A stretch of DNA of 64,000 bases. Source: a virus. Position numbers and translations under genes: made by a program. Location of the stretch: IMG/VR virus record IMGVR_UViG_3300042564_004221, positions 1 to 64,000 of that record; one strand, 5' to 3'. The notes under the pieces were generated by a model. It was given only the letters and a program-made list of their open reading frames with translations. It ran no database searches and was not told where the DNA came from. Positions 4,013 through 32,800 of this stretch are shown here, in pieces; within the stretch, counting starts at the first letter, position 1, and every line of letters starts with the position of its first letter.

Positions 4013-4028
4013 ATAAAAAATAATCAAA

Positions 4029-4397
4029 TTATATCCAATTAATTTTTGTAATTTTTGAAGGGACGGTTATTTTAATGCCAAAGTAATTACAATGTGTTTT
4101 AATTTCATTAAAGAGACACATTTTAATAAATTTATTAATTCTAATTTTTGAAAAAGATTTTTGAGTATAAATTTCAGAGGTATACCATTTGTTTTCGTCA
4201 AGAGAACTGTATTTTGCTAACACCTCACCATTAAATTCTATATCAATTTCATCATGAAATTTATAATGTCTATAACGAGTAATTTTGAAGGAACCTTTTA
4301 TTTTTTTTGCACCAGAACTGATTTCAACTTCAGAGTATTTTTTTAAAATCTTGTTGATTGATTTTGTATTCTCATTTGTAATTACACTTCTTTCCAT
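4029..4397 (-). CDS. Hypothetical basic protein
   Basis: 122-aa ORF with its own promoter-like element. Confidence 0.65.
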   Translation of the reverse strand: MERSVITNENTKSINKILKKYSEVEISSGAKKIKGSFKITRYRHYKFHDEIDIEFNGEVLAKYSSLDENKWYTSEIYTQKSFSKIRINKFIKMCLFNEIKTHCNYFGIKITVPSKITKINWI

Positions 4398-13340: not shown

Positions 13341-13884
13341 TTTTGTGTTTTTCTATAAAAAAGTTTATATCTTGACTCCAAAGTATCATCGCTTCTTCCT
13401 TGATTTTACTCTCTTCCCAATCCCACCAAGCAATGTCCAATAAATCTTTTATTTGTTGTTCCTCAAATCTATACTTTAAATGTTTCGATGGGTTTCCACC
13501 AACAACAGAATAAGGTTCGACATCTTTGGTTACTAAAGCACCTGCGGCAACAATCGCCCCGTGTCCAATCTTAACACCCGACATTATTGTTGATTTTGCA
13601 CCAATCCAAACATCATTTCCAATGGTAATATCACCCTTACAAGATGGATGTCCCATCTCCATATGAAGTTTTGCTACTTCAGGTGTGACTGGTCCCCACA
13701 ATTGAGAACTCGTTGTTATCCAATCAGACCTGTGGTTCGCATGTAAAAACAAATTACAATCCCTACCGATAGAACAATATTTTCCAACCTTAATTTTATA
13801 TTCATCACTCCAAGAAATTATATTGACATTTCGGTCAAAATATGTTCCCCTGTCAGCACTCCATAAATGTATATTTTCAATCAT
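13321..13884 (-). CDS. Hexapeptide-repeat O-acetyltransferase (CatB/Vat-like fold)
   Basis: VGKYCSIG, H(R)SDWITT, KGDITIGNDVWIG, GVKIGHGAIVAAG, VVGGNP and WWDW motifs. Confidence 0.85.
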   Translation of the reverse strand: MIENIHLWSADRGTYFDRNVNIISWSDEYKIKVGKYCSIGRDCNLFLHANHRSDWITTSSQLWGPVTPEVAKLHMEMGHPSCKGDITIGNDVWIGAKSTIMSGVKIGHGAIVAAGALVTKDVEPYSVVGGNPSKHLKYRFEEQQIKDLLDIAWWDWEESKIKEEAMILWSQDINFFIEKHKNDKGNI

Positions 13885-13897
13885 ACTTAAATTTAAT

Positions 13898-14521
13898 CTA
13901 TTGAAGTAAATTGTGTATCCATATTTTAGACAGATTAATTAATTCGTTAGTCATTTCGTGTCCTGAGTTCACGAAGATTGCAGTTATGTTATTGTTCTTG
14001 GTTTTTAAATGGAGATGACTTTTTTCCGCCCAATCATATGGAATAACAAAATCAGTCCTACCATTTATCATCAAGATAGGTGTATCGTTTAATTGATGAC
14101 TATCCAATTTAAATTCATAATAACCCAACAATGAAACAACACCTTTACATTTTATTTTGTTTTCAATACAAGAATGTAAGGCAACCGTCGCACCTTGTGA
14201 TACACCAATAAAGATGGGGTCATCTAATAATAGATATTTTTGTCTTGTTTCATCAATTATTGTTTTGATGTAGTCTGAACACATTTCAATATCATCTTCC
14301 TTTGAAAAGTTTTCAAGATGACATCCCAAGATATCAAACCAACCTCGTCCATCTTCACGTTCTGGTGTCCACTTACGAGGGCCTTTAATTGCTAAAATAA
14401 ATGAATTTTTTGGTAATATGTCTTTCAGGTATAATAATTCATTCTCATCCCACCCCAATTGGTGAAGTAATACAAAGAAAGGGATTTTAACTTCAGGTTC
14501 TAAAACTATGTTAGTATTCAT
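13898..14521 (-). CDS. Alpha/beta hydrolase (carboxylesterase/phospholipase type)
   Basis: GVSQG nucleophile elbow, G..DFVIP and GHE triad motifs, and GRGWFD. Confidence 0.8.
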   Translation of the reverse strand: MNTNIVLEPEVKIPFFVLLHQLGWDENELLYLKDILPKNSFILAIKGPRKWTPEREDGRGWFDILGCHLENFSKEDDIEMCSDYIKTIIDETRQKYLLLDDPIFIGVSQGATVALHSCIENKIKCKGVVSLLGYYEFKLDSHQLNDTPILMINGRTDFVIPYDWAEKSHLHLKTKNNNITAIFVNSGHEMTNELINLSKIWIHNLLQ

Positions 14522-16386
14522 TATTTAACTTCCAATATGTCATTAAAAATATATTTATTTGTATTCGTTTCGTAAATCTTAATCGAGTATTTGTTAGGTT
14601 CTAAAAACAAATTACTTACATAAAAATACCAATAACCATAAAAGTTTTGACCGCCTAATCTAAAAATTTCATTACCTTCTAAATCGCCAACAACAAAATC
14701 AACAATCTCCCCAACTTTCTTGGTTGTCATAAAAGAATTCTTTTCAAATACTAATGTTTGATTTGAGTAGGTAATAACAAACTCTTCACAATCAATAACA
14801 TTAACATTGTAGTTCCTCCTTATATTATCATAATGTTCCTGACTTTTAATTCCGTGAAAAAACAAAACTTCATTATGATTTTTAGGTAAAACAACTGATG
14901 ACGATATTTCAGTCATACTATAACTATAGTTTTCAAATATCCCCATATCAATGTCCGTCACTTCTTCTATATCCAATAGAGGTAATCCCTTAGTTAGATT
15001 GTATTTTGCTAAAACCGCATTTGCAGTATCTTCGTCGTGAAACAATAATATTCCTGGTTTAGTCCCTTTATACTTTTGGTATATTTCCATTTGTTCTTTA
15101 AAAAACCATTCTGACCTTGAATCAAAAATCATTACGTTTGTCTTTCTTCGTGGGAATATCTCAGTCGTAACACCCATTTCATTTTTTAGTATATGTAATG
15201 AACTGGTCCATTCCTCTCCTTCGATAATATTTGATAAATAAAATACATCGTGAATGTGTGAGTTAATTAGGGGATAGTTTTCTAACTCATTAAAGTATTG
15301 CTTAATATTGTCGGAATTAACGGTGAAGTAAATGTCCGAATCAATACAGACATATCTTTTATTTGGGAATGAATTTATTAAATCAACATTAATTAAAGGT
15401 TTTGAACTGATAATATTATTGTCCCTACCTCTACTATCTTTATCACCTTCAGGAATATCAATTCTTCTTACAATAAATTGCTCATTAGATAAATCATTTT
15501 TAGATAAACTATAATCATGATTAATTGAGTAGATAATACATTTTCTGTTTGAGTATTTTTTAATCGACTCTAATAAGTTTATAAAAAGTGTTTCATAATT
15601 TTTTGTAAAACTAACAACCCAATAAAAGTCATCTATAATTGATTTATCATAAGATGCCGTTATAAGATTTCCAACTTTTTTTAACCTCGTTTTATTCTTT
15701 CTATAAAAATGGTACAAAGCCCTTTCTTGATTGTTAATATAAACCTTACCCCCTGTCCAATATGCATCGTATGTGTTTTTACCTCCATTGTCTGTTTCAC
15801 AATTTATTGAATCGTAGATTAATCTAACATTACAGTTTTCAATTAAAATTTGACTCATCTCATGCTCATCAAATGCGGTAACATAATCAAAATCTAATAT
15901 CTCGATAAACCTATCAATACTCTTTCTGTATAATCTTCTATTCTCATAGGTATTTTTAATTATAACAAAAGGACCCGAAATTCTATTATGATGAACCTTA
16001 TCAGCAAATGAAATTACATCGTATTCTTCCGTATGAGGTATTACCCATTTTTGGAAATCACCAAATAATGTATCAATATCATAGAACCCAAAAAAATTAT
16101 ATTCAGTTAAATAGTCTTCAAATAACTCACCCAAACAAGATTTCAAATCACTAATTTTTTGTGAATTTTTGATTTTATATTCATAGTTCAACATCAATGA
16201 AACTTTTTCTTCAACCTCATCTTTTGTTATTGGTATGACTTTATAATTAGGAGAATCAAGTACCAATCCACTATCCGTGAAAATTAAAAAATCTATATTA
16301 AGATTTTTCGTGGTTTCATAATGAAACCAAAAATAGTCAGGTATTTTACCTAACCAAAGTTGCATTAATACTATTTTATTTTTCAC
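14521..16386 (-). CDS. Multi-domain glycosyltransferase-like protein (two GT-A-like domains)
   Basis: N-terminal domain W.GK.PDYF...KISDLK...FFGFYDIDTLFGD; second domain SKP...CIDSDIYF...HDEDTAN. Both have DxD motifs. Confidence 0.7.
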   Translation of the reverse strand: MKNKIVLMQLWLGKIPDYFWFHYETTKNLNIDFLIFTDSGLVLDSPNYKVIPITKDEVEEKVSLMLNYEYKIKNSQKISDLKSCLGELFEDYLTEYNFFGFYDIDTLFGDFQKWVIPHTEEYDVISFADKVHHNRISGPFVIIKNTYENRRLYRKSIDRFIEILDFDYVTAFDEHEMSQILIENCNVRLIYDSINCETDNGGKNTYDAYWTGGKVYINNQERALYHFYRKNKTRLKKVGNLITASYDKSIIDDFYWVVSFTKNYETLFINLLESIKKYSNRKCIIYSINHDYSLSKNDLSNEQFIVRRIDIPEGDKDSRGRDNNIISSKPLINVDLINSFPNKRYVCIDSDIYFTVNSDNIKQYFNELENYPLINSHIHDVFYLSNIIEGEEWTSSLHILKNEMGVTTEIFPRRKTNVMIFDSRSEWFFKEQMEIYQKYKGTKPGILLFHDEDTANAVLAKYNLTKGLPLLDIEEVTDIDMGIFENYSYSMTEISSSVVLPKNHNEVLFFHGIKSQEHYDNIRRNYNVNVIDCEEFVITYSNQTLVFEKNSFMTTKKVGEIVDFVVGDLEGNEIFRLGGQNFYGYWYFYVSNLFLEPNKYSIKIYETNTNKYIFNDILEVK

Positions 16387-17338
16387 CTAACAATAATTTG
16401 TTTTCCCAATAGTTTACAAAACCATCAACAGTTTTTTTATCAATTTTTTCAAGTTCAACTAAGTGGTCTTTAACCATACCTATAGTGTTATTTGCCCATT
16501 GAATATCATCCCATCCATAAGCGGTTCCAAACATTTGTATTGGATTGTTTAATCTATATTCTGTTGGTGTAATGTTTTTATTATACTCACCATCAACAGT
16601 TAAAGCATTACCTGTAAATTCATATTGTTGTCCAGGGTTTAATATAATTGACTTGGTTCCACATAATCCCGCAGCCAAAGTATAAAAACTTTTTTGGTCG
16701 TAAGTTAGAAAATATTCATATTTGTTTAATTCATCTCTTAAATAATCATAAGCTCCATTAACTTTCCAATTTGTTAAATCAATAGAATTTAAATTATCAA
16801 AAATATCTAAACCATTTGGTGGTGTATGTTTATGAATTATATGACAAAATCCTTTTCTCTTACTAAAATTTGTTTGATATAATTTATCAAAATTATAATC
16901 AAAAACCGTTAATGGTTTATGTTCCACTTTTCTAAAAGTTTTGAAATCACCATAATTAAAATACACATCATTAACACCATAATCATTTTCAATATCTTCT
17001 TGAGTATCATACAATATCCATCTTACAACATGCTCGGTATTAAATGGATTTCCTCTACCAATTTGTGGGTATATTGCAACGGTGTTAGATAGATTATAAT
17101 TAAAATATTCCCAATTATACCACTCAAGAAATCCTTCTTCTTTAATTAAAGTTGTTGGTATTACTTTTATATTTTCGTGTGGATATTCTGGTTCACAAAA
17201 AATATAAACATTATGACCTCTGTCGGCCAATTCATATGCTAATTTATGCATCGCAACTATTCCACCTGTTAACGCTCGTGAAAATGGAGTATAGATACCA
17301 ATCAAAAAATTTATTTTACCATTGTTTTCTAAATTCAT
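16376..17338 (-). CDS. Glycosyltransferase-like protein (GT-B type)
   Basis: TGGIVAMHKLAYEL..RGHNV, AIYPQI..GNPF...VVRWIL and YD..SF...AAGLCG motifs. Confidence 0.65.
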   Translation of the reverse strand: MNLENNGKINFLIGIYTPFSRALTGGIVAMHKLAYELADRGHNVYIFCEPEYPHENIKVIPTTLIKEEGFLEWYNWEYFNYNLSNTVAIYPQIGRGNPFNTEHVVRWILYDTQEDIENDYGVNDVYFNYGDFKTFRKVEHKPLTVFDYNFDKLYQTNFSKRKGFCHIIHKHTPPNGLDIFDNLNSIDLTNWKVNGAYDYLRDELNKYEYFLTYDQKSFYTLAAGLCGTKSIILNPGQQYEFTGNALTVDGEYNKNITPTEYRLNNPIQMFGTAYGWDDIQWANNTIGMVKDHLVELEKIDKKTVDGFVNYWENKLLLGEK

Positions 17339-17339
17339 A

Positions 17340-17924
17340 TTATTTTATTTTTTTTTTTACAGGAACTCCAACATAAATACCAGGTTCTTCTATATGTTTA
17401 ACTACTGCACTATTCATACCAATCGTAGACAAACTATGAATTGATAATTTTTCCCTTATTGATGAATTATTTCCCATATAAACTAAGTCATATATTCTTA
17501 CATTCCCTGATACGACTGCACCAGGCATTGCACTAAAATAATCACCTATTTCACAATCGTGTCCAATATGATTACCCCTATTCAATATCGCATGTTTACC
17601 AATTTTTATGTTGGTCGTTAGTATAGAATATGCCCCAATAAAACTTCCTTCACCAATTTCAACATCACCCATCAACAGAGCGGTTGGGTGAATGAAGGTA
17701 AAAAATTGAGTGTCTTTTGGTAATCTTTGAACAATATCATATCTGTCTCTTGAGTCCGCAACCGCAATCATTGCAATATGTTTTTTTGGGTCAAATAACG
17801 ATAATGGTAATACGTCTTCACTATGTTTAACATATTGGTCATCAACAAATCTATCCAATTTAACACCCATCTGAGCCATCACTTCTTTTGCGTGGCCACC
17901 ATTACCAATTAATACTTTTTTCAT
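17340..17924 (-). CDS. NeuD/PglD-family sugar N-/O-acetyltransferase
   Basis: IGNGGHAKEV, IHPTA, hexapeptide repeats, IGHDC and GVP. Confidence 0.88.
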   Translation of the reverse strand: MKKVLIGNGGHAKEVMAQMGVKLDRFVDDQYVKHSEDVLPLSLFDPKKHIAMIAVADSRDRYDIVQRLPKDTQFFTFIHPTALLMGDVEIGEGSFIGAYSILTTNIKIGKHAILNRGNHIGHDCEIGDYFSAMPGAVVSGNVRIYDLVYMGNNSSIREKLSIHSLSTIGMNSAVVKHIEEPGIYVGVPVKKKIK

Positions 17925-17928
17925 ATCT

Positions 17929-19299
17929 TTATTTTATAAACCACCAAGTGCCAAACCATTCTTTAGTTACATTTGGTGTATATCCGTGTTTATTACAAAA
18001 TTCATCAACCGCTGGGTTAACACCAAAAACTCCATTGTATATTGGAGTTCCGTCTAACATTGAAGTATAGATGTATTTGTCCTTTCTATTTGGAGCAAAG
18101 TTGGGGTCGTTATACCAATCCATATTAATATAATCGTGTCCTGAAAAAACACCACCTTTTTTTAACTTTGGAAACCACAGATTAATGTCCTCAACAACAA
18201 AATCGTATGCGTGGTTTGCATCAATAAAGATAAAATCTAACGATTCATCTTGGAACATATCAGCAGCAACTTCAGAGGTTGCTCTTACCATAATACCTCT
18301 ATCTTCAAGTCCTTTAATACTTTCCATAGTTTCTTGGTAAGCGTCAATATGGTCTTTATGATTACTAGCATCTTCGTATTCAACACCTAAGGGTCTCCAA
18401 ACATCCACCATATAGAGCGTTCCTCCCCAATTATTTAAAATGTTTTTGGAAAACTCTCCCTTAAACACACCAATCTCAACACCTTTACCATTTGGGATTA
18501 AATTATTTAAATCCCTAATTAAATCGTCTCTATGATTATACATAATATTTTTTTTGTAATCTTTTATTTTTTTTATTTTTGAATCTCCATTAAAAGTGTC
18601 CCCTATGAAATGACAGAATTTTCCATTCAAATTAATTTCATCGTTAAAATTTTCATCAACAATATAATAAAAATTTTTAAACGGAACAATTGTGTCAGTA
18701 TTTACTAAATTTTTTTTATTGAAGTAATGATTAATATATGGTTGTTCGGTAAATTGTCCTTCAGGATATACATCTCTTAAATTCAAAACATTCATAAAAT
18801 GTTCCCTTATTTTTGAACTATTTTTGAACATCATTAACCCGCTATTAAACGTATGTATCTTATTTTCTTTAAAAAAGGATATGTCTTCATTAGTGTAATT
18901 ACCTAAATTAAAAGGTTTTCTAAAATGATTTTCAAAGCTATAATCTTCAACAACCGCATATAATTTATCGTCTTCACACTCTTTAAAAATTACATCTAAT
19001 TTTAAATTTGCCCACACATCGGAATCCATATACATTAAATTGTCATAACCTAAAATATTTGCATCAAATATTCTTAATCTATTAAACGCGACATCATCTG
19101 TAGTTGTATTTTCCACCATATGGTAATATACATTTGGTCTTTCATAGTCTTTAAAGTTTTTTTCATAAAATTCTCTATCAGTAATGATGAGAACATCCTG
19201 ATTAGTATTATAAACATCTAACTTTAATACAGACAATTTTAACAATTCTGCATAAGAATCATTAAATCCAACCGAATAATATACCAAATTTTTACTCAT
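17929..19299 (-). CDS. Fusion of a GT8-like glycosyltransferase and a class I SAM methyltransferase
   Basis: N-terminal YMDSDV, FNSGLM, EQPYIN and HF.G; C-terminal VEIGVFKG, VDVW, DFIFIDANHAY and GG...GHDY. Confidence 0.8.
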   Translation of the reverse strand: MSKNLVYYSVGFNDSYAELLKLSVLKLDVYNTNQDVLIITDREFYEKNFKDYERPNVYYHMVENTTTDDVAFNRLRIFDANILGYDNLMYMDSDVWANLKLDVIFKECEDDKLYAVVEDYSFENHFRKPFNLGNYTNEDISFFKENKIHTFNSGLMMFKNSSKIREHFMNVLNLRDVYPEGQFTEQPYINHYFNKKNLVNTDTIVPFKNFYYIVDENFNDEINLNGKFCHFIGDTFNGDSKIKKIKDYKKNIMYNHRDDLIRDLNNLIPNGKGVEIGVFKGEFSKNILNNWGGTLYMVDVWRPLGVEYEDASNHKDHIDAYQETMESIKGLEDRGIMVRATSEVAADMFQDESLDFIFIDANHAYDFVVEDINLWFPKLKKGGVFSGHDYINMDWYNDPNFAPNRKDKYIYTSMLDGTPIYNGVFGVNPAVDEFCNKHGYTPNVTKEWFGTWWFIK

Positions 19300-19940
19300 C
19301 GCTTATATATCTCATATTTTGATAAATCAGGATATGGTAATTCCAAGTCCTCATTGTGTTTTTTGGTTCCATCTAAATTGTAGAATTGAGCCATCATTAA
19401 TAATCCTCTTGCAGATAACTCTGGCATCATATAAAAGTTCCAACCCAACATATCAAAATTATCATCGTGATAAGAACATTCCCTTCTTCCACTAAATCTG
19501 GCTCTTTTAAACCATAACATTGCTTGATAATCATCGGTTATGATTGCACCTCCTTTACTTAACTTTAATGTCTTATACGGACCTGTAAATGAAAGACACA
19601 TATGTGATTTTGGAATATACATATTGGCTGTAAATCTTAAAGCCGAGTCCCAAACATTACTTGGTGATAGTTGATATGCTCCTTTAATCTTATCACCTTC
19701 AACAGGTGTAAAATTAACCTTTAGTCCCGCATGAATAATCTCACAAGGTACAGATGGATATGTCTTGGATGGACAATCAATCTTTTTGTTTGTTAAACTC
19801 TTCTTTATATTTTTTTCGTAATACAACGCTAAAAATAGTGCATTACTCATATTATCTAATGCAACTGCATAGGGTGCTCCTGTATAATCACAAAGAGACT
19901 TTTCAAAATCTTCCGTTATTTTATGAACGCCTTGAGCCAT
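19296..19940 (-). CDS. DegT/DnrJ/EryC1/StrS-family PLP-dependent sugar aminotransferase (short form)
   Basis: FEKSLCDYTGAPYAVA...ALFLAL, WDSA, LSF...KTL...GGAIITDD and GWNFYM; only 214 aa. Confidence 0.78.
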   Translation of the reverse strand: MAQGVHKITEDFEKSLCDYTGAPYAVALDNMSNALFLALYYEKNIKKSLTNKKIDCPSKTYPSVPCEIIHAGLKVNFTPVEGDKIKGAYQLSPSNVWDSALRFTANMYIPKSHMCLSFTGPYKTLKLSKGGAIITDDYQAMLWFKRARFSGRRECSYHDDNFDMLGWNFYMMPELSARGLLMMAQFYNLDGTKKHNEDLELPYPDLSKYEIYKR

Positions 19941-19941
19941 A

Positions 19942-20631
19942 TTAATTTCTATTATCTATATAAACTATAATCTGTTCGTAGTAGTTAATAAAGTGTTCAT
20001 TCCATAAATCCCATTTAATATCAACACCATCCACAGAGAAAACCTCAATATTTGGGAACAATCTTAGGTATGTATCCCTGAAAATTCTAAACTTTTGTTT
20101 TTCTTCTTCACCACTTAAATGCCATTCACCAACAATTTTTCTAACATTTTCCTTAATCCAAAAAATATTCTTGTTGTTGAAAACACTATATTCACCGCCC
20201 TCACAATCGGTCTTAATAAAATCTATTTTAGTTATATTAAACTCCTCTCTAATATTATCAAAGGTTGTGGTTTGAGCCATTTTCATTCCATCCTCCACAC
20301 CGAATAAGTTAAGTTCAAAATAACCTTCAACATCACTAATACCTTTATTTATGATTCTAACAGGACCATCTTTAACATTTTTGGTTAATGTTTCAATTTC
20401 TTGATGGCTAGGTTCTATACAATAAACTTGTTTTGGATTTTTATTTAGAATAGAATAGGTAAATGGTCCAACACTTGAACCGAAATCAAATACAATATCA
20501 CCTTCTTCTACTTCGAAGAATCTTTCATAAGCTTTTTGAATGAAAATCTCTTCTATTATTTGACTTTTATGGTATTTCGAGGACTCTGAATCCCCTTCCA
20601 TCCAACCCCAATCAAAATTATCTAAATTCAT
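19942..20631 (-). CDS. FkbM-family SAM-dependent methyltransferase
   Basis: DIVFDFGSSVGPF, YCIEP, IDFIKTDCEGGEY and GEWH. ATG at 20631; the ORF track uses TTG at 20649. Confidence 0.82.
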   Translation of the reverse strand: MNLDNFDWGWMEGDSESSKYHKSQIIEEIFIQKAYERFFEVEEGDIVFDFGSSVGPFTYSILNKNPKQVYCIEPSHQEIETLTKNVKDGPVRIINKGISDVEGYFELNLFGVEDGMKMAQTTTFDNIREEFNITKIDFIKTDCEGGEYSVFNNKNIFWIKENVRKIVGEWHLSGEEEKQKFRIFRDTYLRLFPNIEVFSVDGVDIKWDLWNEHFINYYEQIIVYIDNRN

Positions 20632-20681
20632 ATCTTGAATAATAGACAAATTTTCTTATTTTTCAACTAAAACAAACATCT

Positions 20682-22964
20682 ATGTTAAAAATATTTGGAC
20701 ACGGGTCTTACATCGGAGATACAGGTTATAACCATCACACAAGGGATTTTTTCAGACATTTATCAAGTCACGCTCAAATTAAATTTAGAAATTTCACTGT
20801 CGGAAGCAGTTGGAATGGAATGAGTAGTGAACCTCACAATAAAGAGTATTATTTTAACAGCACTGACAGACAAATATTATACGAACAAGTCCTTTGGAAT
20901 AACGATGGAGGTAGGGATAATCATAAAATATATTCAAACTATTCTAAAGAATTTGTTCCCGATGTTAATATTGTTTTATGTGAAACAAACCATCACTTAT
21001 TTTATGATGAATATAATGGTCCAAAAATTGCATATAATGTTTGGGAATCAACCCTACAACCTCCACACTATTTTAACAAACTAAAAGAGTTTGACGAGAT
21101 GTGGGTTCCATCCAAATGGCAAAGGGATATGACAATTGCTCAAGGTTATGACCCAAATAAGATTAAGGTTGTTCCCGAAGGTGTTGATGTTAAAACTTTT
21201 TTCCCTGAAGAAACATCCCACGAATTAACCTCAGATGGAAGATTTAAATTCTTCTTGGCAGGTAGATGGGATTATAGAAAATCAATTAAAGAAATTATTG
21301 AAACATTCTTGAAAACTTTTGATAAAGATGAACCTGTTGACTTAATTGTTTCAATTGATAATCCGTTTTCGAATGACGGGTTAAACACAACAGAAGAAAG
21401 ATTGGAACACTATGGATTTACCGACGATAGAATCAAAATATTACATTTCCCACCAAGAGAAGATTACGTTAAGATATTAAAATCTTGTGATGCGTTTGTA
21501 TCTTGTGCAAGAGCTGAAGGTTGGAATTTACCTTTAATCGAAGCAATGGCATGTGGTACACCTTCCATTTATTCAAATTGTTCGGGTCAATTAGAGTTTG
21601 CCGAAGGTAAGGGTATTCCAGTTAAAATATCACACGAATTACCTGTTAGTGCCAGTTCATACAATCACTTCAATGATAATGTTGGAAACTATTACGAACC
21701 TGATTATAACGATTTGGGAAAACAAATGTGGGATGTGGTAACTAACTATCAATCGCACAAACAAAGAGCGTTAGAAGAGTCCGAAATCATTAGAAAAGAG
21801 TTTAGTTGGGAGCATATTGCCGAGATTGGAATTGAAACCCTAAATGATTTTATGGAAAGAAAACCTTGGCTAAACAAACCAAAGAAAGAAAATAGAGTTA
21901 TCGTCAGTTATTTGGACGGACCTAGAGTTGAGGTGTTGGGGGATGAAAATAAAGATTATCATATTGAATTTATCAATGGTGATACTGATGAAGTAATCCA
22001 CTCCCAAACCATATCAAACAATATGTGGGTTGCGGCAGGTAAGAAATACTACATACCTTGGATTATAAAAATCAATGGACATATCTATGATGTCTTTGAC
22101 TTAACAAATAAAACTGTCCTAATTTCATTAGAATCAAAATCTTTAGGTGATACAATTGCTTGGGTTCCATACGCAGTTGAACTCCAAAAGAAATACAATT
22201 GTAAGGTAATAGTTTCTACATTTATGAATGAACTATTCAAAGGATTGGAAGAATATAAAGATATTGAATTTATAAAACCTGGTCAATCTTGTGATTGTTA
22301 TGTAATTTATAGGATTGGTTGGTTTAGAAAGGACAACACTTGGACTGATTTTGACAGACAACCAAATCAACCTAACTTAATTCCCCTCCAACAAACCGCA
22401 ACCGATATTCTTGGACTTGAATTTAAAGAACTAAATTATGGGCTTAATTTTGTTAAAAAAGAACGTCCAATTAAGAAGGATTATGTTGTATTTGGACCTA
22501 GTGCAACTTCAGGTTGTAAAGAATGGGTTTACGCCAATTGGGTTTCCTTATCAAAGATGATTAAAGAACTTGGTTATGAAGTGGTTATATTAACAAAAGT
22601 TCCTTATAATATTGAGGGAGTGATTAATGTTTGGGGAGAACCTTTAGAGGTTGTTGCCAATTATTTAAAACACTCGGAAGCATTTATTGGTTTAGGTTCG
22701 GGTTTATCTTGGTTTAATTGGGCGTTGGGTAAACACACATTCATGATTAACGGATTTGCCGAACCAGGACACGAATTTACATCAAACTTAACAAGGATAT
22801 ACAACGACAATACTTGTATTTTTTGTTGGAATGATGAGGTATTTGTTTTTGATAGTGGTGATTGGGATTGGTGTCCTGTGTATAAAGGAACCAAAAAACA
22901 ACATATATGTCAAAAGTCTATTACACCATTACAAGTATTTAACCATCTTTTAACCAAAATATAA
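20682..22964 (+). CDS. GT4 glycosyltransferase fused to an Aah/TibC-family (autotransporter heptosyltransferase-like) protein glycosyltransferase
   Basis: N-half has WVPSKW, GRWDYRK and EGWNLPLIEAMACGTP. C-half has KKYYIPW, SLGDTIAW, FIGLGSGLSW and the four-Cys CIFCWND...WCP...C.KSITP motif. Confidence 0.85.
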   Translation: MLKIFGHGSYIGDTGYNHHTRDFFRHLSSHAQIKFRNFTVGSSWNGMSSEPHNKEYYFNSTDRQILYEQVLWNNDGGRDNHKIYSNYSKEFVPDVNIVLCETNHHLFYDEYNGPKIAYNVWESTLQPPHYFNKLKEFDEMWVPSKWQRDMTIAQGYDPNKIKVVPEGVDVKTFFPEETSHELTSDGRFKFFLAGRWDYRKSIKEIIETFLKTFDKDEPVDLIVSIDNPFSNDGLNTTEERLEHYGFTDDRIKILHFPPREDYVKILKSCDAFVSCARAEGWNLPLIEAMACGTPSIYSNCSGQLEFAEGKGIPVKISHELPVSASSYNHFNDNVGNYYEPDYNDLGKQMWDVVTNYQSHKQRALEESEIIRKEFSWEHIAEIGIETLNDFMERKPWLNKPKKENRVIVSYLDGPRVEVLGDENKDYHIEFINGDTDEVIHSQTISNNMWVAAGKKYYIPWIIKINGHIYDVFDLTNKTVLISLESKSLGDTIAWVPYAVELQKKYNCKVIVSTFMNELFKGLEEYKDIEFIKPGQSCDCYVIYRIGWFRKDNTWTDFDRQPNQPNLIPLQQTATDILGLEFKELNYGLNFVKKERPIKKDYVVFGPSATSGCKEWVYANWVSLSKMIKELGYEVVILTKVPYNIEGVINVWGEPLEVVANYLKHSEAFIGLGSGLSWFNWALGKHTFMINGFAEPGHEFTSNLTRIYNDNTCIFCWNDEVFVFDSGDWDWCPVYKGTKKQHICQKSITPLQVFNHLLTKI

Positions 22965-23842
22965 TGAACACAATTTTAATAATACTTAACTCAACTTCAT
23001 TGGGAGATACAATTGGCGTAATGCCGTGTATTGAAAAATTTATATCAAATACGACCGATAATGTCTTGGTTAAAACAAACCCAAGATACAATTCATTATT
23101 CACAAAATCTTATCCTATGGTTAAGTTCTTTGAGGAGGGAATGTTTTTTGACAAACAAATCTCATTAGATTATAACTTTAATCTACCCCTTCAAACAGGA
23201 TTTGCAAATCAACTTGGATTTATGGATTGGGAATATGTTCAACCTAAAGTTGATGTACCTGATAGTGAAAGACCAATAAAGGGGAAATATGTTACCATTA
23301 GTATCCACTCAACCTCTCAATTAAAATATTGGAATCACCCGTTAGGAATTAAAACTCAACCCTTATCACCAAATTGGAATGACCTTTGCGGGTTGTTAAG
23401 AAAAAATGGTTTAACTCCTGTTATTGTTGAAAGGGATGAAATGTTTGGTATTCCTCCATATCGAAATGGTATGCCAAACAAAGCAAATAAAAAAATAGAT
23501 TTATCTATTGATGAAACAATAAGATACATTCAACACTCCGAATTCTTTATTGGATTATCTTCAGGAATATCTTGGTTGGCACATGCAATGGATAAAAAAG
23601 TTGCAATGATTTCTAATTTCTCGGAAGATTGGCATGAGTTTGATTTGTCTTCTGAAAATTATAAAAGAATTACCAACAAATCAGTATGTAATGGATGTTG
23701 GAATAGAATAAATAAAGATTTTTCTTTTGATGCTGGTGATTGGTATTGGTGCCCAAAACATAGAGATACTGAACGCCAATTTGAATGCCATACATCAATA
23801 ACACCTGAAATGGTGTTTGATAACATTAAAGATTGGATTTAA
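22964..23842 (+). CDS. Second Aah/TibC-family (GT9-like) protein glycosyltransferase
   Basis: SLGDTIG, STSQLKYWN, FFIGLSSGISWLAHA and VCNGCWN...WCPKHRDTERQFECHTSITP. Confidence 0.85.
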   Translation: MNTILIILNSTSLGDTIGVMPCIEKFISNTTDNVLVKTNPRYNSLFTKSYPMVKFFEEGMFFDKQISLDYNFNLPLQTGFANQLGFMDWEYVQPKVDVPDSERPIKGKYVTISIHSTSQLKYWNHPLGIKTQPLSPNWNDLCGLLRKNGLTPVIVERDEMFGIPPYRNGMPNKANKKIDLSIDETIRYIQHSEFFIGLSSGISWLAHAMDKKVAMISNFSEDWHEFDLSSENYKRITNKSVCNGCWNRINKDFSFDAGDWYWCPKHRDTERQFECHTSITPEMVFDNIKDWI

Positions 23843-26800
23843 CTATTGAATAACCCTTAATTGATAAGAAAAATCAAGTTTTGATGAATTAGTATCATCT
23901 GAAACAACAACAAGAGCAACCGCTGCTTGGTATTGACACGAACTTGAGATTGAATATTGTTTTTCAAAATCAAAACAAACCATACCAGTTGCACTTATTG
24001 AAACACTATGCCCTGACTCAGAATCTCCAAAAAGTTGAATATAATCAACATCTGTACCTTGGCCGCCATTAGTAAATAAGTCACAATCGGCAATTAAAAT
24101 ATTGGCATATAGTTCGGCACTTGTATCGGTAAGATACCCATAAAAATAAGCGTTTCCACAAAGTCTAAATGTCAAGCTGGTTGTCCCATCTGCTATTACA
24201 ATTGGCGCAAAATTATGTAAGTGGTCTTTTGGCGCTGGCGTTGGAGCAACTAGTTCATCCCAAACACCACCATTCCAACCTTCGTTTGCGTTTCCATAAT
24301 AATAATCAGTAATCACTGGATTGGCAGAATCAGGAGTCACCATACTAGATATAGTTCCAGATGTTACCTGAACAACTGCGGTTACTTCTGCTGCTCCTGA
24401 TGTTCCTGAACTACCACTTGAACCAGCCGCTCCTGATGCTCCTGAAGAACCACTTGAACCTGAACTTCCGCTAGCACCTGACGAACCACTTGAACCAGCT
24501 GCTCCTGATGCTCCTGAAGAACCCGAACTACCATTAGTTCCTGAACTTCCACTTGAACCTGAACGTCCACTTGAACCCGAACTTCCTGAAGAACCACTTG
24601 AACCAGATGCTCCTGAACTTCCACTTGAACCCGAACTACCTGAAGAACCGCTTGAACCAGATGTTCCTGAAGAACCCGAAGAACCGCTAGTACCACTTGA
24701 ACCTGAGCTACCACTTGTTCCACTTGAACCCGAACTTCCGTTGGCTCCTGATGTTCCCGAAGAACCGCTTGAGCCAGATGTTCCACTTGAACCCGATGTT
24801 CCTGAACTTCCGCTAGTTCCCGAAGAACCTGAACGCCCACTTGAACCTGAGCTACCTGAAGAACCGCTAGTTCCACTTGAACCCGAAGAACCATTAGCTC
24901 CGCTCGTTCCCGAAGAACCAGAACTACCACTTGTTCCAGAACTACCTGAACTACCATTGGCACCGCTAGTTCCACTTGAACCTGAACTTCCGCTAGTCCC
25001 TGATGAACCAGATGTTCCGCTTGTTCCCGAAGAACCGCTTGAACCTGATGTTCCTGATGAACCAGAACTTCCATTTGCTCCACTCGTCCCTGAGCTACCT
25101 GAAGAACCAGATGTTCCTGACGAACCACTTGTTCCTGAAGAACCTGAACGTCCACTTGAACCAGACGAACCTGAGCTACCTGAAGAACCGCTTGAACCTG
25201 ATGTTCCTGATGAACCTGAACTACCATTAGCACCACTTGTTCCACTTGAGCCTGAAGAACCGCTAGTACCCGATGAACCTGAAGAACCGTTAATACCACT
25301 TGTTCCTGAACTGCCCGAAGAACCACTTGTTCCACTTGAGCCCGATGTCCCTGAACTTCCACTAGTCCCTGATGAACCCGAACGTCCACTTGAACCTGAT
25401 GAACCACTTGAACCAGATGTTCCTGATGAGCCAGAAGAACCACTTGTTCCGCTTGAACCTGAACTACCGTTAGCACCACTTGTTCCGCTTGAACCTGAAG
25501 AACCACTTGTTCCACTTGAACCCGAAGAACCATTGGCACCGCTTGTTCCCGAACTACCTGAAGAACCAGATGTTCCACTTGAACCTGAAGTTCCTGAGCT
25601 TCCGCTAGTACCTGAAGAACCTGAACGTCCGCTTGAACCAGATGAACCACTTGAACCTGAAGTTCCACTTGAACCCGAAGAACCACTTGAGCCAGAACTT
25701 CCACTTGTTCCCGAACTACCTGAAGAACCAGAAGTTCCTGATGAACCTGAAGAACCATTAGCACCGCTTGTTCCTGAACTACCCGAACTTCCACTTGTAC
25801 CCGATGAACCTGAGCTACCACTTGTACCTGAAGAACCGCTAGTTCCACTTGTTCCCGAACTACCTGAACTACCCGAAGAGCCACTTGTTCCCGAACTACC
25901 CGAACTACCATTAGCACCACTTGTTCCACTTGAACCTGAACTTCCGCTAGTCCCTGAAGAACCTGAACTTCCGCTTGTTCCTGAACTACCCGAAGAACCA
26001 CTAGTACCTGATGAACCTGAAGTTCCTGAACTTCCGCTAGTTCCTGATGAACCTGAACGTCCACTTGAACCACTTGAACCTGAGCTTCCGCTAACACCCG
26101 ATGAGCCGCTTGAGCCAGAACTTCCACTTGTTCCCGAACTACCTGAAGAACCACTTGAACCCGAACTACCACTTGTTCCTGAACTTCCAGAACTACCATT
26201 AGCACCACTTGTTCCTGATGAACCTGAACTACCACTTGTTCCACTTGAGCCCGAACTTCCATTGGCACCCGACGTTCCACTTGAACCCGAAGAACCGCTT
26301 GTTCCGCTTGAACCAGAAGTTCCTGAACTACCACTAGTTCCAGAAGAACCTGAACGTCCACTTGAGCCTGATGAGCCCGAACTACCTGAAGAACCTGAAG
26401 TTCCACTTGAGCCCGAAGAACCACTTGAACCCGATGTTCCTGACGAACCACTTGTTCCGCTTGAACCTGAACTACCATTGGCACCTGAAGTCCCTGAACT
26501 ACCACTCGAACCACTTGTTCCTGATGAACCTGAGCTACCATTGGCTCCACTTGTTCCCGAAGAACCTGAAGAACCGCTAGTACCCGATGAACCTGAAGAA
26601 CCGTTAATACCACTCGTTCCTGAACTGCCCGAAGAACCACTTGTTCCACTTGAGCCCGATGTCCCTGAACTTCCACTAGTCCCTGATGAACCCGAACGTC
26701 CACTTGAGCCTGATGAGCCCGAACTACCTGATGTTCCACTTGAGCCAGATGAACCTGAAGTTCCTGATGAACCTGAACTACCATTGACTCCACTTGTTCC

Positions 26801-29800
26801 TGATGAACCACTTGAACCAGATGTTCCCGAAGAACCTGAACTTCCACTTGTTCCTGATGAACCTGAACTTCCATTGACACCTGACGTTCCACTTGAACCT
26901 GAACTACCGCTAGTACCTGATGAACCTGAAGAACCACTTGTTCCACTTGAACCCGAAGAACCATTGGCACCGCTTGTTCCCGAACTACCTGAAGAACCAG
27001 ATGTTCCACTTGAACCTGAAGTTCCTGAGCTTCCGCTAGTACCTGAAGAACCTGAACGTCCACTAGAGCCCGAAGAACCGCTTGTTCCGCTTGAACCTGA
27101 GGTTCCACTTGTACCTGATGAACCCGAACTTCCACTTGTTCCACTTGAGCCACTTGTTCCACTTGAGCCTGATGAACCAGATGTTCCTGAGCTTCCGCTA
27201 GTTCCTGAAGAACCACTTGAACCTGATGTTCCACTTGAACCTGAACTACCATTGGCACCGCTTGTTCCTGAAGAACCACTTGACCCAGATGTTCCACTTG
27301 AACCCGAACTACCACTTGTTCCAGAACTACCCGAACTACCATTAACACCTGATGTTCCCGAAGAACCTGATGAACCGCTAGTTCCACTTGAACCTGAAGT
27401 TCCTGAGCTTCCGCTAGTTCCTGAAGAACCTGAACGTCCACTTGAACCTGAGCTACCTGAACTTCCACTAGAGCCCGAAGAACCACTTGTTCCACTTGAA
27501 CCTGAACTTCCATTGGTTCCGCTTGTTCCTGAAGAGCCCGAACTACCACTTGTTCCAGAAGAACCTGAACGTCCACTTGAGCCTGATGAACCTGAACTAC
27601 CTGAAGAACCAGATGTTCCCGAACTACCTGAGCTTCCACTTGAACCTGAGGTTCCTGATGAACCACTTGTACCTGAAGAACCTGAGCTACCATTAGCACC
27701 TGAAATTCCACTTGAACCGCTTGAACCAGATGTTCCCGAAGAACCTGAACTTCCACTAGTACCTGATGAACCAGAAGAACCACTTGTTCCACTTGAGCCC
27801 GAACTTCCACTAGTACCTGAAGAACCACTTGTTCCACTTGAGCCTGAAGTTCCTGAGCTTCCGCTAGTACCTGAAGAACCTGAACGTCCGCTTGAACCAG
27901 ATGAACCACTTGAACCCGAACTTCCACTTGTACCCGATGAACCTGAGCTACCACTTGTACCTGAAGAACCGCTAGTTCCACTTGTTCCCGAACTACCTGA
28001 ACTACCATTAGCACCTGAGGTTCCAGATGAACCACTTGAACCAGATGTTCCCGAAGAACCTGATGAACCGCTAGTTCCACTTGAACCTGAACTACCATTG
28101 GCACCTGACGTTCCACTTGAGCCTGAAGAACCGCTTGTTCCACTTGAGCCTGAAGTTCCTGAGCTTCCGCTAGTTCCTGAAGAACCTGAACGTCCACTTG
28201 AGCCTGATGAACCTGAACTACCTGAAGAACCAGATGTTCCTGACGAACCACTTGTTCCCGAACTACCCGAAGAACCACTTGTTCCTGAAGTTCCACTTGA
28301 ACCGCTTGAACCAGAAGTTCCTGAGCTTCCGCTAGTTCCTGAAGAACCTGAACGTCCACTTGAACCTGAGCTACCTGAACTTCCACTAGAGCCCGAAGAA
28401 CCGCTTGTTCCGCTTGAACCTGAGGTTCCACTTGTTCCACTTGAGCCTGATGTTCCACTTGAACCTGAACTACCATTGGCGCCGCTTGTTCCTGAAGAAC
28501 CACTTGACCCAGATGTTCCTGAAGAGCCCGAACTACCATTAGCTCCTGATGTTCCACTTGAGCCCGAAGAACCGCTTGTTCCACTTGAGCCTGAAGTTCC
28601 TGAGCTTCCGCTAGTTCCTGAAGAACCTGAACGTCCACTTGAACCTGAGCTACCTGAAGAACCGCTAGTACCACTCGAACCTGAACTACCACTTGTTCCT
28701 GAGCTACCTGAACTTCCATTGGCTCCGCTTGTTCCACTTGAGCCAGATGAACCTGAAGTTCCTGATGAACCTGAGCTACCATTGGCTCCACTTGTTCCCG
28801 AAGAACCTGAAGTTCCACTTGAACCCGAACTACCATTAGCTCCGCTTGTTCCTGATGAACCACTTGACCCTGATGTTCCACTAGTACCTGATGAACCCGA
28901 ACTTCCACTTGTTCCACTTGAGCCCGATGTCCCTGAACTTCCACTTGTTCCTGAAGAACCTGAACGTCCGCTTGAGCCTGAACTACCTGAAGAACCACTT
29001 GTTCCTGAACTACCTGAAGAACCATTGGCCCCGCTCGTTCCACTTGAGCCTGAACTTCCACTAGTTCCTGAACTACCCGAAGAACCACTTGACCCAGATG
29101 AACCTGAAGTTCCTGACGAACCTGAACTACCATTTACACCTGATGTTCCAGATGAACCACTTGAGCCCGAAGTTCCTGATGAGCCTGAACTACCATTAGC
29201 ACCACTTGTTCCGCTTGAACCAGATGAACCTGAAGTTCCTGAGCCACCCGAAGAACCACTTGTTCCTGAAGAACCTGAAGAACCATTGGCTCCTGAAGTC
29301 CCTGAACTACCTGAAGAACCAGATGTTCCACTTGAGCCTGAAGTTCCTGAGCTTCCGCTAGTACCTGATGAACCTGAACGTCCACTTGAACCTGATGAAC
29401 CACTTGAACCAGATGTTCCTGATGAGCCAGAAGAACCACTTGTTCCGCTTGAACCTGAACTACCGTTAGCACCACTTGTTCCGCTTGAACCTGAACTTCC
29501 ACTAGTACCTGAAGAACCACTTGTTCCTGATGAACCAGAACTTCCACTTGAACCTGCAGTCCCACTTGAGCCCGAAGAACCACTTGTTCCGCTTGAACCC
29601 GATGTTCCTGAACTTCCACTAGTTCCAGAAGAACCTGAACGTCCACTCGAACCAGAACTACCTGAACTTCCACTTGAACCCGAACTACCCGAACCTGATG
29701 TTCCTGAAGAACCACTTGAGCCAGATGTTCCTGAAGAACCACTTGAGCCTGAACTACCTGAACTTCCACTTGAACCGCTAGTTCCTGAAGAACCATCTCC

Positions 29801-32800
29801 ACCTGAAGCACCTTCTAAATTACTCTCCCAACTACAAAAAGTCCCTGTTCCACTTATTGATGTTACTTCTAATACTAATGCACCTGTTGAAGGATTATAA
29901 CTAACAACTTTACCTGTAAAATAATTCGTTACGCTATTTGCAATTAAAACGTTTTGTCCAATAGTATATGACAGTCCTGCCCCTACATTTAAACTAACAT
30001 TAAGACCGATAGTTAAACCACTTAAAGTTATACAGTCCGTAGACAATCCAGAATAATCAGAAGATGTTCCGCTAGTTCCTGAAGAACCACTTGAGCCAGA
30101 TGTTCCTGAAGAACCAGATGTTCCTGACGAACCACTTGAACCTGAGCTACCATTTGTTCCGCTAGAACCTGAAGAACCGCTCGTACCTGATGAACCTGAA
30201 CTACCATTAATACCTGATGTTCCTGAGCTACCACTTGAACCTGATGAACCTGATGAACCTGAACTTCCACTTGTTCCTGAAGAACCACTAGTTCCCGATG
30301 AACCACTTGAACCTGAAGTACCCGAGCTACCACTTGACCCTGATGTTCCAGAAGAACCTGAACTTCCACTTGTTCCTGAAGAACCACTTGAACCTGATGT
30401 TCCTGAACTACCTGAAGAACCGCTGGTTCCACTTGAGCCAGATGTTCCACTTGTTCCAGAACTACCTGAACTACCATTGGTACCACTTGAACCCGAACTT
30501 CCACTAGTTCCTGATGAACCCGAACTTCCACTAGTTCCTGATAAACCTGAACTACCTGAAGTTCCACTTGTTCCGCTTGAGCCTGAAGAACCAGATGTTC
30601 CTGAACTTCCGCTAGTACCTGATGAACCCGATGTTCCACTTGAGCCTGAACGTCCACTAGAACCTGAAGAGCCAGATGTTCCTGAAGAACCTGAGCTTCC
30701 ACTTGCTCCTGATGAACCACTTGAACCAGATGTTCCTGATGAACCTGAACTTCCATTAGCACCACTTGTTCCAGAACTACCCGAAGAACCTGAAGTTCCA
30801 CTTGAACCTGAAGAGCCAGAGGTTCCGCTTGAACCTGAACTACCATTGGCGCCGCTTGTTCCTGAAGAACCACTTGACCCAGATGTTCCTGAAGAGCCCG
30901 AACTACCACTTGTTCCAGAACTACCCGAACTACCATTAGCTCCTGATGTTCCTGACGAACCACTTGAACCTGAAGTTCCTGAACTTCCACTAGTACCTGA
31001 AGAACCTGAACGTCCGCTTGAACCAGATGAACCAGAACTACCTGAAGAACCGCTAGTTCCACTTGACCCTGAACTACCGCTAGTGCCTGATGACCCTGAA
31101 CTACCGCTAGTTCCACTTGACCCTGAACTTCCACTTGTTCCTGATGAACCTGAACTTCCATTAACACCACTTGTTCCACTTGAACCTGAACTTCCGCTAG
31201 TACCTGAAGAACCAGATGTTCCACTTGAGCCCGAACTACCATTAGCTCCTGATGTTCCCGAAGAACCACTTGACCCAGATGTTCCTGACGAACCACTTGT
31301 TCCGCTTGAACCAGATGTTCCTGACGAACCACTTGTTCCGCTTGAACCTGAACTACCATTCGCACCTGAGGTTCCACTAGTACCTGATGAACCTGAAGTT
31401 CCTGAACTACCACTAGTTCCAGAAGAACCTGAACGTCCACTTGAACCAGACGAACCACTTGAACCTGAACTACCACTCGAACCGCTTGTTCCTGATGAAC
31501 CAGAAGTTCCTGAAGAACCCGATGTTCCACTTGTTCCAGAACTACCTGAACTACCATTCGCACCTGAGGTTCCACTTGAGCCAGATGAACCTGAAGTTCC
31601 TGAGCTACCACTTGTACCTGAAGTTCCTGATGAACCTGAGCTACCATTGATTCCACTTGTTCCTGAACTACCCGAAGAACCGCTTGTTCCGTTTGTTCCG
31701 CTTGAACCAGATGTTCCTGAAGAACCTGAGGTTCCGCTAGTTCCTGAAGAACCTGAGGTTCCGCTAGTTCCTGATGAACCTGAACGTCCACTTGAACCAG
31801 AACTACCTGAAGAGCCAGATGTTCCTGATGAGCCAGAACTTCCACTTGTTCCCGATGAACCTGAACTACCACTAGTTCCTGATGAACCAGAACTTCCATT
31901 TGCTCCGCTTGAACCTGAAGTTCCTGAGCTACCACTCGTTCCTGAAGAACCGCTTGAACCAGATGTTCCGCTTGAACCCGAAGAACCATTAGCACCTGAT
32001 GTTCCCGAACTTCCACTTGAACCGCTAGTTCCTGAAGAACCCGAACTTCCATTAACACCACTTGTTCCACTTGAACCTGAACTACCGCTCGTACCCGAAG
32101 AACCTGAGCTACCTGAACCTGATGTTCCCGATGAGCCCGAACTTCCATTTGTTCCTGAAGAACCTGATGAACCGCTAGTTCCAGAACTACCTGAACTACC
32201 ATTAACACCACTTGTCCCACTTGAACCAGAACTACCGCTTGTGCCAGAAGAACCATCTCCTCCTGACGCTCCTTCTAAATTAGTTTCCCAATTACAAAAA
32301 GTTCCCGTTCCTGATATTGCGGTTACTTGTAAAACTAAAACACCTGTTGAAGGATTATAACTAATAACTTTACCTGTAAAATAATTACTTACACTATTTG
32401 CAACAAGTACACTTTGTCCTATTGTATAAGAAAGATTTGTACTTGCGGTTAAAGTAATATTTAACCCAACGGTTAATCCACTTAAAGTTATACAATCCGT
32501 AGATAATCCAGAATAATCAGAAGAGGTTCCGCTAGTTCCTGAAGAACCACTTGAACCTGAAGTTCCACTTGAGCCAGATGAACCTGAACTTCCATTAGTT
32601 CCGCTAGAGCCACTTGAACCAGAAGTTCCTGATGAACCACTTGAACCAGAGATTCCTGAAGAACCTGAGCTTCCGCTAGTTCCCGAAGAACCACTAGAAC
32701 CCGATGTTCCTGAACTACCACTTGTTCCTGATGAACCACTTGAACCCGATGTTCCCGAACTTCCTGAACTACCATTAACACCACTTGTTCCCGAAGAACC

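Follow-up and report, generated by a model that had tools for sequence, protein, structure and literature searches.

TibC/Aah-type glycosyltransferase genes next to a Gly-X-Y fibre gene in a large uncultured phage: a known enzyme family in a new setting

TibC and Aah (AAH) of E. coli belong to the BAHT family (bacterial autotransporter heptosyltransferases; PDB 4RAP/4RB4; eLife 2014, PMC4358343), which is otherwise known only as a virulence-linked modifier of proteobacterial autotransporters. In TibC, Asp110 is the catalytic base, Thr226 and Lys230 contact the beta-phosphate, Trp305 contacts the heptose O4, and Cys339, Cys342, Cys358 and Cys370 hold an iron (PMC4358343). Arg286 contacts adenine N1 and was given as the basis of ADP-sugar use; the contact was termed weak in the 3.9 A structure, and the R286A substitution abolished or largely diminished activity (PMC4358343). 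The elements that build the TibC dodecamer are a beta-hairpin thumb (Phe265/Val266), which links dimers, and a flattened barrel (residues 1-97) that is also essential for activity, and direct transfer to protein Ser is the sole characterised activity of the family (PMC4358343). Here we describe two adjacent genes of this family in a 64,000-nucleotide stretch of viral DNA, called the window below (positions 1 to 64,000 of IMG/VR record IMGVR_UViG_3300042564_004221). One of the two encodes a fusion to a GT4 glycosyltransferase domain, and the pair adjoins the gene of a 3744-aa fibre rich in Gly-X-Y triplets. The locus presents a known enzyme family in a new setting that is real and widespread, and its function is predicted from sequence.

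The phage proteins resemble TibC and Aah in fold (TM 0.85-0.88, 28-33% identity), in keeping the catalytic Asp, the Thr/Lys phosphate site, the Trp and the four-Cys finger, in the barrel that is apparently kept in the fusion, and in the position of the pair beside a very large Ser-rich surface-fibre gene. They differ from them in several respects. The carrier is a phage and not a proteobacterium, and the neighbour is a collagen-like Gly-Ser/Thr-Ser fibre, with no autotransporter with beta-helical repeats adjacent. At the position of TibC Arg286 they have Val or Thr, and of the two domains one has lost the thumb and the other has no barrel. The phage also has two paralogous BAHT domains, one of them fused to GT4, and these fall in a clade apart from 73 cellular sequences. 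The lipopolysaccharide (LPS) heptosyltransferases WaaC and WaaF (GT9) have the GT-B fold and a weak Glyco_transf_9 match in common with the phage BAHTs, but differ in their low similarity (TM 0.5-0.6, 9-11% identity), in having neither iron finger nor barrel, and in acting on a lipid acceptor.

With respect to function, the nearest analogue is glycosylated collagen-like BclA. BclA and other exosporium proteins of Bacillus and Clostridioides likewise have collagen-like, hydroxyl-rich Gly-X-Y repeats; these are known to be O-glycosylated, whereas glycosylation of the phage fibre is predicted, and the BclA-type glycan is thought to aid hydration and stability (PMC8968730). BclA repeats contain Pro (GPT) and extend over tens to hundreds of residues, whereas the phage fibre has about 1000 triplets and no Pro in them, and the enzymes that act on BclA are not BAHTs, unlike the phage pair. 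A precedent for phage enzymes that decorate their own structural proteins is mycobacteriophage virion O-glycosylation (Freeman et al. 2023, cited in PMC12619734); according to the citing account, the targets there are the C-terminal tails of capsid and tail-tube subunits and the enzymes are of other glycosyltransferase families. In our tblastn search, glycosyltransferases of Streptomyces and Rhodococcus phages were matched by the GT4 half of the fusion only. The glycosylation of Mimivirus fibrils and collagen is likewise virus-encoded and host-independent, involves amino-sugar tailoring genes and concerns surface fibrils, but it belongs to a eukaryotic virus, uses different enzymes and modifies collagen on hydroxylysine (PMC9614988, PMC8968730). 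For the aquatic 'moraphages', four core glycosyltransferase groups were left without a specific function (PMC12619734).

The gene pair and its TibC-type residues

The features discussed below are the following, each with its basis in brackets.

20682..22964, plus strand: gene of the GT4, beta-barrel and BAHT fusion, 760 aa, P0001 (open reading frame, Pfam, TIGR04414)
20682..21866, plus strand: GT4 domain, aa 1-395, retaining GT-B type, E279-x7-E287 (PF00534)
21882..22130, plus strand: TibC-type N-terminal beta-barrel, aa 401-483 (PF21129, TibC alignment, model strands)
22131..22961, plus strand: BAHT catalytic domain of the fusion, aa 484-760 (alignments)
22964..23842, plus strand: gene of the barrel-less BAHT paralogue, 292 aa, P0002 (TIGR04414, TibC match, AlphaFold, Foldseek)
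23843..35077, minus strand: gene of the 3744-aa Gly-X-Y fibre, the probable acceptor (translation, composition)
12489..20649, minus strand: glycan-tailoring island, divergent from the pair (Pfam and PHROGs matches)

The two genes encode three glycosyltransferase domains, one GT4 and two diverged BAHT domains (GT9-like GT-B), with the catalytic and iron-finger residues intact. An earlier note on this DNA, made from the letters alone, had assigned both proteins to the Aah/TibC family on the strength of the motifs SLGD, FIGLxSGxSW and CxxCW...WCP...C..SITP. All of these are present in both proteins and correspond to the catalytic Asp110, Trp305 and the four iron-binding Cys of TibC, and the assignment is borne out by profile, sequence and fold comparisons. 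The profile TIGR04414 of NCBIfam ('autotransporter strand-loop-strand O-heptosyltransferase', cut-off 200 bits) matches residues 409-755 of P0001 over model positions 15-370 with 224.5 bits (E 2e-66). P0002 reaches 186.8 bits (E 5.8e-55), short of the cut-off, since without a barrel it spans just model positions 84-372; the short paralogue of a related complete phage, G001, scores 197.2 bits.

Pfam matches of the fusion are Glycos_transf_1, GT4-conflict, TibC_1st and, weakly, Glyco_transf_9. Its GT4 half, which the earlier note had proposed, is confirmed by PF00534 at residues 183-306 (52.1 bits, E 7.5e-14, gathering score 26.4) and by the E-x7-E pair E279 and E287, which is invariant among 10 fusions; PF20706 (GT4-conflict) gives 37.6 bits against a cut-off of 26. 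A sequence search of the PDB with this domain returned weak matches to MshA, sucrose-phosphate synthase and BshA, and Foldseek, with a query model of mediocre quality, matched MshA, HepE, PimA and PglA. The barrel of the fusion is indicated by PF21129 (TibC_1st) at residues 412-464 with E 7.5e-5 and 23.1 bits, where the gathering score is 27; in the alignment, 78 of the 97 TibC barrel residues have a counterpart in it, and the model has seven to eight strands over residues 405-483. The model of the full-length fusion is poor (pLDDT 67.5), and its top fold match is still TibC, followed by GT4 enzymes such as MshA. P0002 has no barrel and begins at the first strand of the catalytic domain. TibC is its only real sequence match in the PDB (E 6e-27), and its AlphaFold model, made from a 42-sequence alignment, has a pLDDT of 95.3. 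With Foldseek against the PDB the TibC chains are the best matches of this model (E ~1e-22), far ahead of WaaC and WaaF (E ~1e-8), so that the best structural match is an enzyme with the Cys motif and not an LPS heptosyltransferase without it.

For the comparison of single residues we aligned 73 cellular BAHTs (69 of them genomic and 4 plasmid-borne, including Aah beside AIDA-I) with the phage sequences, namely 133 short paralogues, 8 fusion domains and 4 further forms. At the positions of Asp110, Thr/Ser226, Lys230, Trp305 and the four Cys, conservation is almost complete in both the cellular and the 145 phage sequences. The corresponding residues are D490, T609, K613, W677 and C712/C715/C731/C743 in P0001, and D15, T117, K121, W204 and C242/C245/C263/C275 in P0002; the four-Cys finger aligns in both, and iron binding is predicted from this. 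The position of Arg286 behaves differently: Arg occupies it in 66 of the 73 cellular BAHTs, but is absent from all 133 short paralogues, which have Thr, Ser, Val or Leu there (T185 in P0002), and from all 8 fusion domains, which always have Val (V658 in P0001). One phage standalone BAHT does have the Arg. At the thumb site P0001 has a 9-residue deletion that is common to all 8 fusion domains, while P0002 has a segment of TibC length whose sequence is different but conserved (Pro-Tyr at 265/266) and which shows only isolated bridges in the model. P0001 thus appears to have a barrel and has no thumb, and P0002 has a thumb-length segment and no barrel, which makes the two domains complementary in the elements that TibC uses for oligomerisation.

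The layout of the locus is as the earlier note had described it, with both open reading frames present at their positions. The two plus-strand genes lie between minus-strand blocks and are the only large genes on their strand; apart from them, all credible genes of the window lie on the minus strand, and any further plus-strand frames either run antisense within the repeat gene or overlap genes of the minus strand. The TAA of the P0001 gene and the ATG of the P0002 gene overlap by one base (TAATG), and the TAA of the P0002 gene (23840-23842) abuts the reverse-strand stop of the fibre gene at 23843, so that the two are convergent with no spacer. A scan of 20300-24300 for sigma-70 promoters and terminators found fewer sites than in shuffled sequences. 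The IMG/VR viral record of which the window forms the first part is 99.8 kb long and has a CheckV completeness of 32%, which implies a phage genome of probably about 300 kb. A baseplate wedge gene and a ribonucleotide reductase gene on this record back its phage origin, in line with the earlier note, and support the view that the pair is carried by a large uncultured phage. The original observation on the gene pair is thereby confirmed, and the interpretation that came with it is, as a whole, partly supported.

Distribution, pairing and the neighbouring fibre

Relatives of both proteins are numerous. In a collection of 5.8 billion proteins P0002 has 1505 relatives; the top 120 of these share 57-100% identity with it, and each is about 292 aa long. 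For P0001 the full-length metagenomic clusters at 70% identity or more number at least 120, and several lie on contigs of 130-323 kb. In a representative library the P0002 query found 1094 clusters at E <=0.001 and 274 at E <=1e-30, these being clusters at the 50% identity level for the whole family, cellular BAHTs included. The closest ESM Atlas clusters are 97-100% viral. Among the best 80 cellular relatives, taken from one genome per bacterial species, identity is at most 35% and nearly all are from Pseudomonadota; each of six cellular BAHT genes that we inspected lies beside a large autotransporter-like gene. A FastTree tree of 133 sequences places the 73 cellular sequences apart from all phage sequences (support 1.0), with the short paralogues (48/48) in one clade and the fusion domains (8/8) in another (support 1.0 each). 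The tree is unrooted, and we therefore claim no direction of transfer. GenBank holds only four phage records with a BAHT, Microcystis phage Mel-JY01 and three huge-phage assemblies. BFVD has two viral models of the BAHT fold, one of them auto-named 'Glycosyltransferase Aah/TibC', and annotation pipelines already label phage proteins by TibC/Aah; full-text literature searches found no paper on a phage BAHT. A 1144-aa protein on a contig binned as 'Chloroflexota bacterium' (PAAV01000055.1, L065:5448-8882; 161 kb, 31% GC) has a C-terminal BAHT domain without Arg286, and this contig may be a phage or mis-binned rather than the source of a Chloroflexota gene.

The two BAHT forms tend to occur together. 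A long BAHT gene followed by a short one, usually overlapping, is found in 17 of the 22 IMG/VR loci with upstream sequence, and some loci have a long partner made up of barrel and BAHT alone, without GT4. In G003 and G007 (a complete 84.7-kb phage) the short gene is solitary and a second long BAHT lies 35-46 kb away. Several metagenomic proteins join the domains in a single chain: P0249 (1032 aa) consists of a barrel, a long-type BAHT and a short-type BAHT in the same order as the genes of the window, P0259 (946 aa) of a GT4 and two BAHT domains, and P0244 (924 aa) has three BAHT domains. Such fusions are Rosetta-stone evidence for a single pathway or complex. The two BAHT domains therefore probably act together, either as two specificities or as one putative heteromeric complex. 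In other phage lineages BAHT domains are fused to methyltransferases as well as to GT4. At L029:7705-10004 a GT4-BAHT fusion is split into frames of 250 aa and 473 aa, which could reflect a frameshift, decay into a pseudogene or faulty assembly.

The fibre encoded next to the pair has 1007 Gly-X-Y triplets in nine runs, in which X is Ser in 610 (61%) or Thr in 304 (30%) and Y is Ser in 937 (93%). The repeats are free of Pro and of charge, and the 3744-aa chain contains 1641 Ser and 401 Thr, or about 2000 hydroxyls. Its other parts are a 275-aa N-terminal domain, three 83-aa modules and a 181-aa C-terminal domain, for which a search found no relative in IMG/VR. The gene is the last of a minus-strand run that contains SprB-repeat proteins and the baseplate wedge gene, and its start codon overlaps the end of the upstream 342-aa frame (35077-36105) at base 35077, which suggests translational coupling between the fibre and the tail and baseplate genes.

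This neighbourhood recurs. In G001 (IMGVR_UViG_3300032242_003291, complete, 317 kb) a fibre homologous in the N-terminal domain and an internal module lies 1.8 kb from the BAHT pair and is convergent with it; the gene is split over the contig ends (positions 1-4073 and 314955-317258). The contigs of G001 and of L022/L023 (18999-20891), which are rated complete or near-complete, both start and finish within collagen-like repeat genes, which indicates that assemblies break in the fibre repeats. In Mel-JY01 (PP395634.1) a frame of at least 1016 aa with 202 triplets of the Gly-[S/T]-[S/T] type lies 1.7 kb from a 1226-aa GT4-insert-barrel-BAHT fusion, and in the 735-kb phage LR756501 the distance between a 738-aa GT4-BAHT fusion and a 695-aa protein with such triplets is 3.7 kb. 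Outside their repeats, these two fibres have no similarity to the fibre of the window; only the repeats are common to them, which means that the repeat, and not one fibre family, travels with the enzyme. The Mel-JY01 fibre frame runs from base 1 of the record (L001:1-3052) and is annotated just as a 177-aa hypothetical protein (2519-3052), while a coding sequence on the opposite strand (739-2298) is probably spurious. The last 2.3 kb of the same record hold a 771-aa open frame that runs off the end and may be the N-terminal part of the fibre if the genome is circularly permuted.

Of the 13 loci at which a GT4-BAHT fusion is adjacent, 9 have a Gly-[S/T]-[S/T] frame within 10 kb (0-9 kb), versus 0 of 9 loci that lack such a fusion (hypergeometric p ~0.001 for distinct loci, uncorrected for relatedness). 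Around the 80 best cellular BAHT loci such a frame was found in one, and that one is doubtful. Canonical BAHT genes adjoin the genes of their substrates, as aah does aidA. Because the neighbourhood recurs and canonical BAHTs adjoin their substrates, the 3744-aa fibre is the most likely acceptor; judged by gene neighbourhood, we regard it as the probable one.

Tailoring genes, donor sugar and alternative explanations

Divergent from the pair lies an 8-kb island of genes for two FkbM methyltransferases, a 214-aa DegT-like protein, a GT8 and methyltransferase protein, a DUF6625 protein, an esterase, a PglD-like acetyltransferase and a second hexapeptide acetyltransferase, several of which are conserved beside the BAHT pair in related contigs. 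The DegT-like protein (19296-19940, minus strand) covers just positions 26-97 of a 360-position aminotransferase profile, and its length is conserved in relatives of 76-93% identity; it may not be a complete aminotransferase. The frame of the 235-aa FkbM-type methyltransferase was listed with a TTG start at 20649, and its relatives align only from residue 7-10. A start at the minus-strand ATG at 20631 is more likely and would leave about 50 nt of AT-rich divergent intergenic DNA ahead of the fusion gene. A TibC-type barrel module had also been considered in an FkbM enzyme (13101-13340) and in the 621-aa DUF6625 protein (14521-14775); BLASTP and a profile of ten barrels matched only P0001 (21894-22105) in the window.

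Our preferred explanation, to which we give a probability of about 0.6, is that the locus encodes a cytoplasmic protein O-glycosylation system that acts on the virion's own fibre. Late in infection the BAHT domains would move a sugar from a nucleotide sugar onto the Ser/Thr hydroxyls of the fibre triplets, with D490 and D15 (the equivalents of TibC Asp110) as base and the Thr/Lys pair holding the beta-phosphate. Extension and tailoring of the glycan would follow, carried out by the fused GT4 and by the GT8, DUF6625, methyltransferase and acetyltransferase proteins of the island. The fibre that results would be collagen-like and free of proline, with a heavy load of glycan that possibly stabilises it. 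That the BAHT domains prime Ser and the GT4 extends the chain is the simplest reading, and the order may be reversed.

The identity of the donor is a separate matter. The earlier note had stated that the window holds no genes for ADP-heptose synthesis, which is correct, and the same is true beyond it: gmhA, both HldE domains and HldD were sought across the whole 99.8-kb record and not found. Likewise, gmhA and HldE domain II (the adenylyltransferase) were sought and not found in two complete relatives, two fragments and Mel-JY01. Other nucleotide-sugar genes vary between phages: G001 has four SDR genes, G002 has two NTP_transferase proteins, and a weak cytidylyltransferase-like match occurs in G001 and Mel-JY01; among the phages searched no CMP-sugar synthetase was found, and no conserved donor-making gene emerged. 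The four SDR genes of G001 (83714-88143) are adjacent epimerase/dehydratase genes that form a cluster of the deoxy-sugar type, distant from the BAHT pair, and the 99.8-kb record has no SDR gene of this type. The loss of Arg286 together with the absence of ADP-heptose genes favours a donor other than ADP-heptose but does not prove it. The suggestion of the earlier note that the donor may be new is to this extent strengthened by the loss of the adenine-contacting residue in the phage clades. The absence of ADP-heptose genes from the phage is compatible with supply by the host.

It is conceivable, if on the whole doubtful, that the phage proteins are ordinary ADP-heptose-dependent heptosyltransferases which draw on the host pool, so that the donor is nothing new. 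The equivalents of T226, K230 and W305, which make the beta-phosphate and sugar O4 contacts, are all kept, the Arg286 contact with adenine was described as weak, and Arg286 itself is found in one phage standalone BAHT. This has to be set against the difference between the cellular and the two phage clades at this position, the effect of R286A on TibC, and the lack of gmhA and of the HldE adenylyltransferase domain in both complete relatives and in Mel-JY01. The host of Mel-JY01 is a cyanobacterium, and heptose is generally absent from the LPS of cyanobacteria. A bolder version of the fibre-glycosylation model holds that the phage branch has switched both substrates, so that a complex of the long and short forms uses a non-ADP-heptose donor on Gly-Ser/Thr-Ser triplets and yields a collagen-like fibre without proline, stabilised by glycan and approaching a micron. 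Such a complex would in practice be a glycosylating enzyme for Gly-Ser linkers; this version we put forward as tentative and rather improbable as a whole. The order of the steps could also differ from that given above, with the GT4 setting the first sugar and the BAHT domains extending it, or with one BAHT domain serving as a non-catalytic scaffold. The sequence is compatible with either order, the short paralogue is without the barrel on which TibC activity depends, and multi-BAHT proteins exist. The GT4 enzyme GtfA puts the first sugar on Ser of serine-rich repeat adhesins. We nevertheless consider such an arrangement quite unlikely, as both BAHT domains keep every catalytic residue compared, transfer to protein Ser is what the family is known to do, and the top 50 fold matches of the GT4 domain include no specific similarity to GtfA.

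Regarding the acceptor, several observations weigh against the fibre-glycosylation model. Four of the 13 fusion loci have no Gly-Ser/Thr fibre in the available flanks, and loci having just the short paralogue have none either, which makes other or additional acceptors possible. The argument for the fibre is one of neighbourhood, and the glycan, the activity and the protein contact are all predictions. The substrate of TibC is a folded beta-helix and not a collagen-like chain, neither phage domain has the full TibC set for dodecamer and activity, and the low pLDDT of the full-length fusion model (67.5) also counts here. In addition, the loci are phylogenetically related, so that the counts overstate their independence. 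One could therefore suppose that other virion proteins are glycosylated, such as the SprB-repeat proteins, Ser/Thr-rich tail proteins or the capsid and tube, and that the Gly-Ser-Ser fibre is a mere neighbour. Besides the four loci, this is supported by downstream structural-looking frames with 30-44% Gly+Ser+Thr at pair loci without a nearby fibre and by the phage capsid and tail-tube glycosylation on record (as cited in PMC12619734). We consider it unlikely in view of the link between fibre and BAHT in three lineages whose fibres are alike only in their repeats, and of the roughly 2000 hydroxyls that each chain offers. The published default for jumbo-phage clusters is different again: Iyer et al. 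2021 read their glycosyltransferase clusters as modifying capsular polysaccharide (PMC7824862), and a cluster that modifies host surface polysaccharide or LPS, for example as a superinfection block, would suit a BAHT fold that is like that of GT9, the family of the LPS heptosyltransferases. The phage proteins match the protein-glycosylating BAHT branch, with its iron finger and barrel, far above the LPS enzymes, however, and the genes lie within a baseplate and fibre module beside a Ser-rich fibre. No membrane-associated polysaccharide export or polymerase genes were found in the window, in a search that was not exhaustive. A host-surface target thus appears very unlikely to us.

Meaning for the BAHT family and for phage virions

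New in this locus are a conserved barrel-less paralogue that is elsewhere fused to the long form, two domains that have lost thumb and barrel in a complementary way, the disappearance of Arg286 from whole phage clades, and the lack of ADP-heptose genes in complete relatives. Because Mel-JY01 is in culture and has both the fusion and a Gly-Ser/Thr fibre that its record leaves unannotated, the question can be tested directly. Gly-Ser repeats are standard linkers in protein engineering, and enzymes that O-glycosylate them would therefore be useful tools. If the fibre-glycosylation model is true, phages with collagen-like fibres would provide a second substrate class for the BAHT family, and their virions a new kind of glycosylation, which could explain the stability or function of proline-free, charge-free Gly-X-Y chains of about 1000 triplets.

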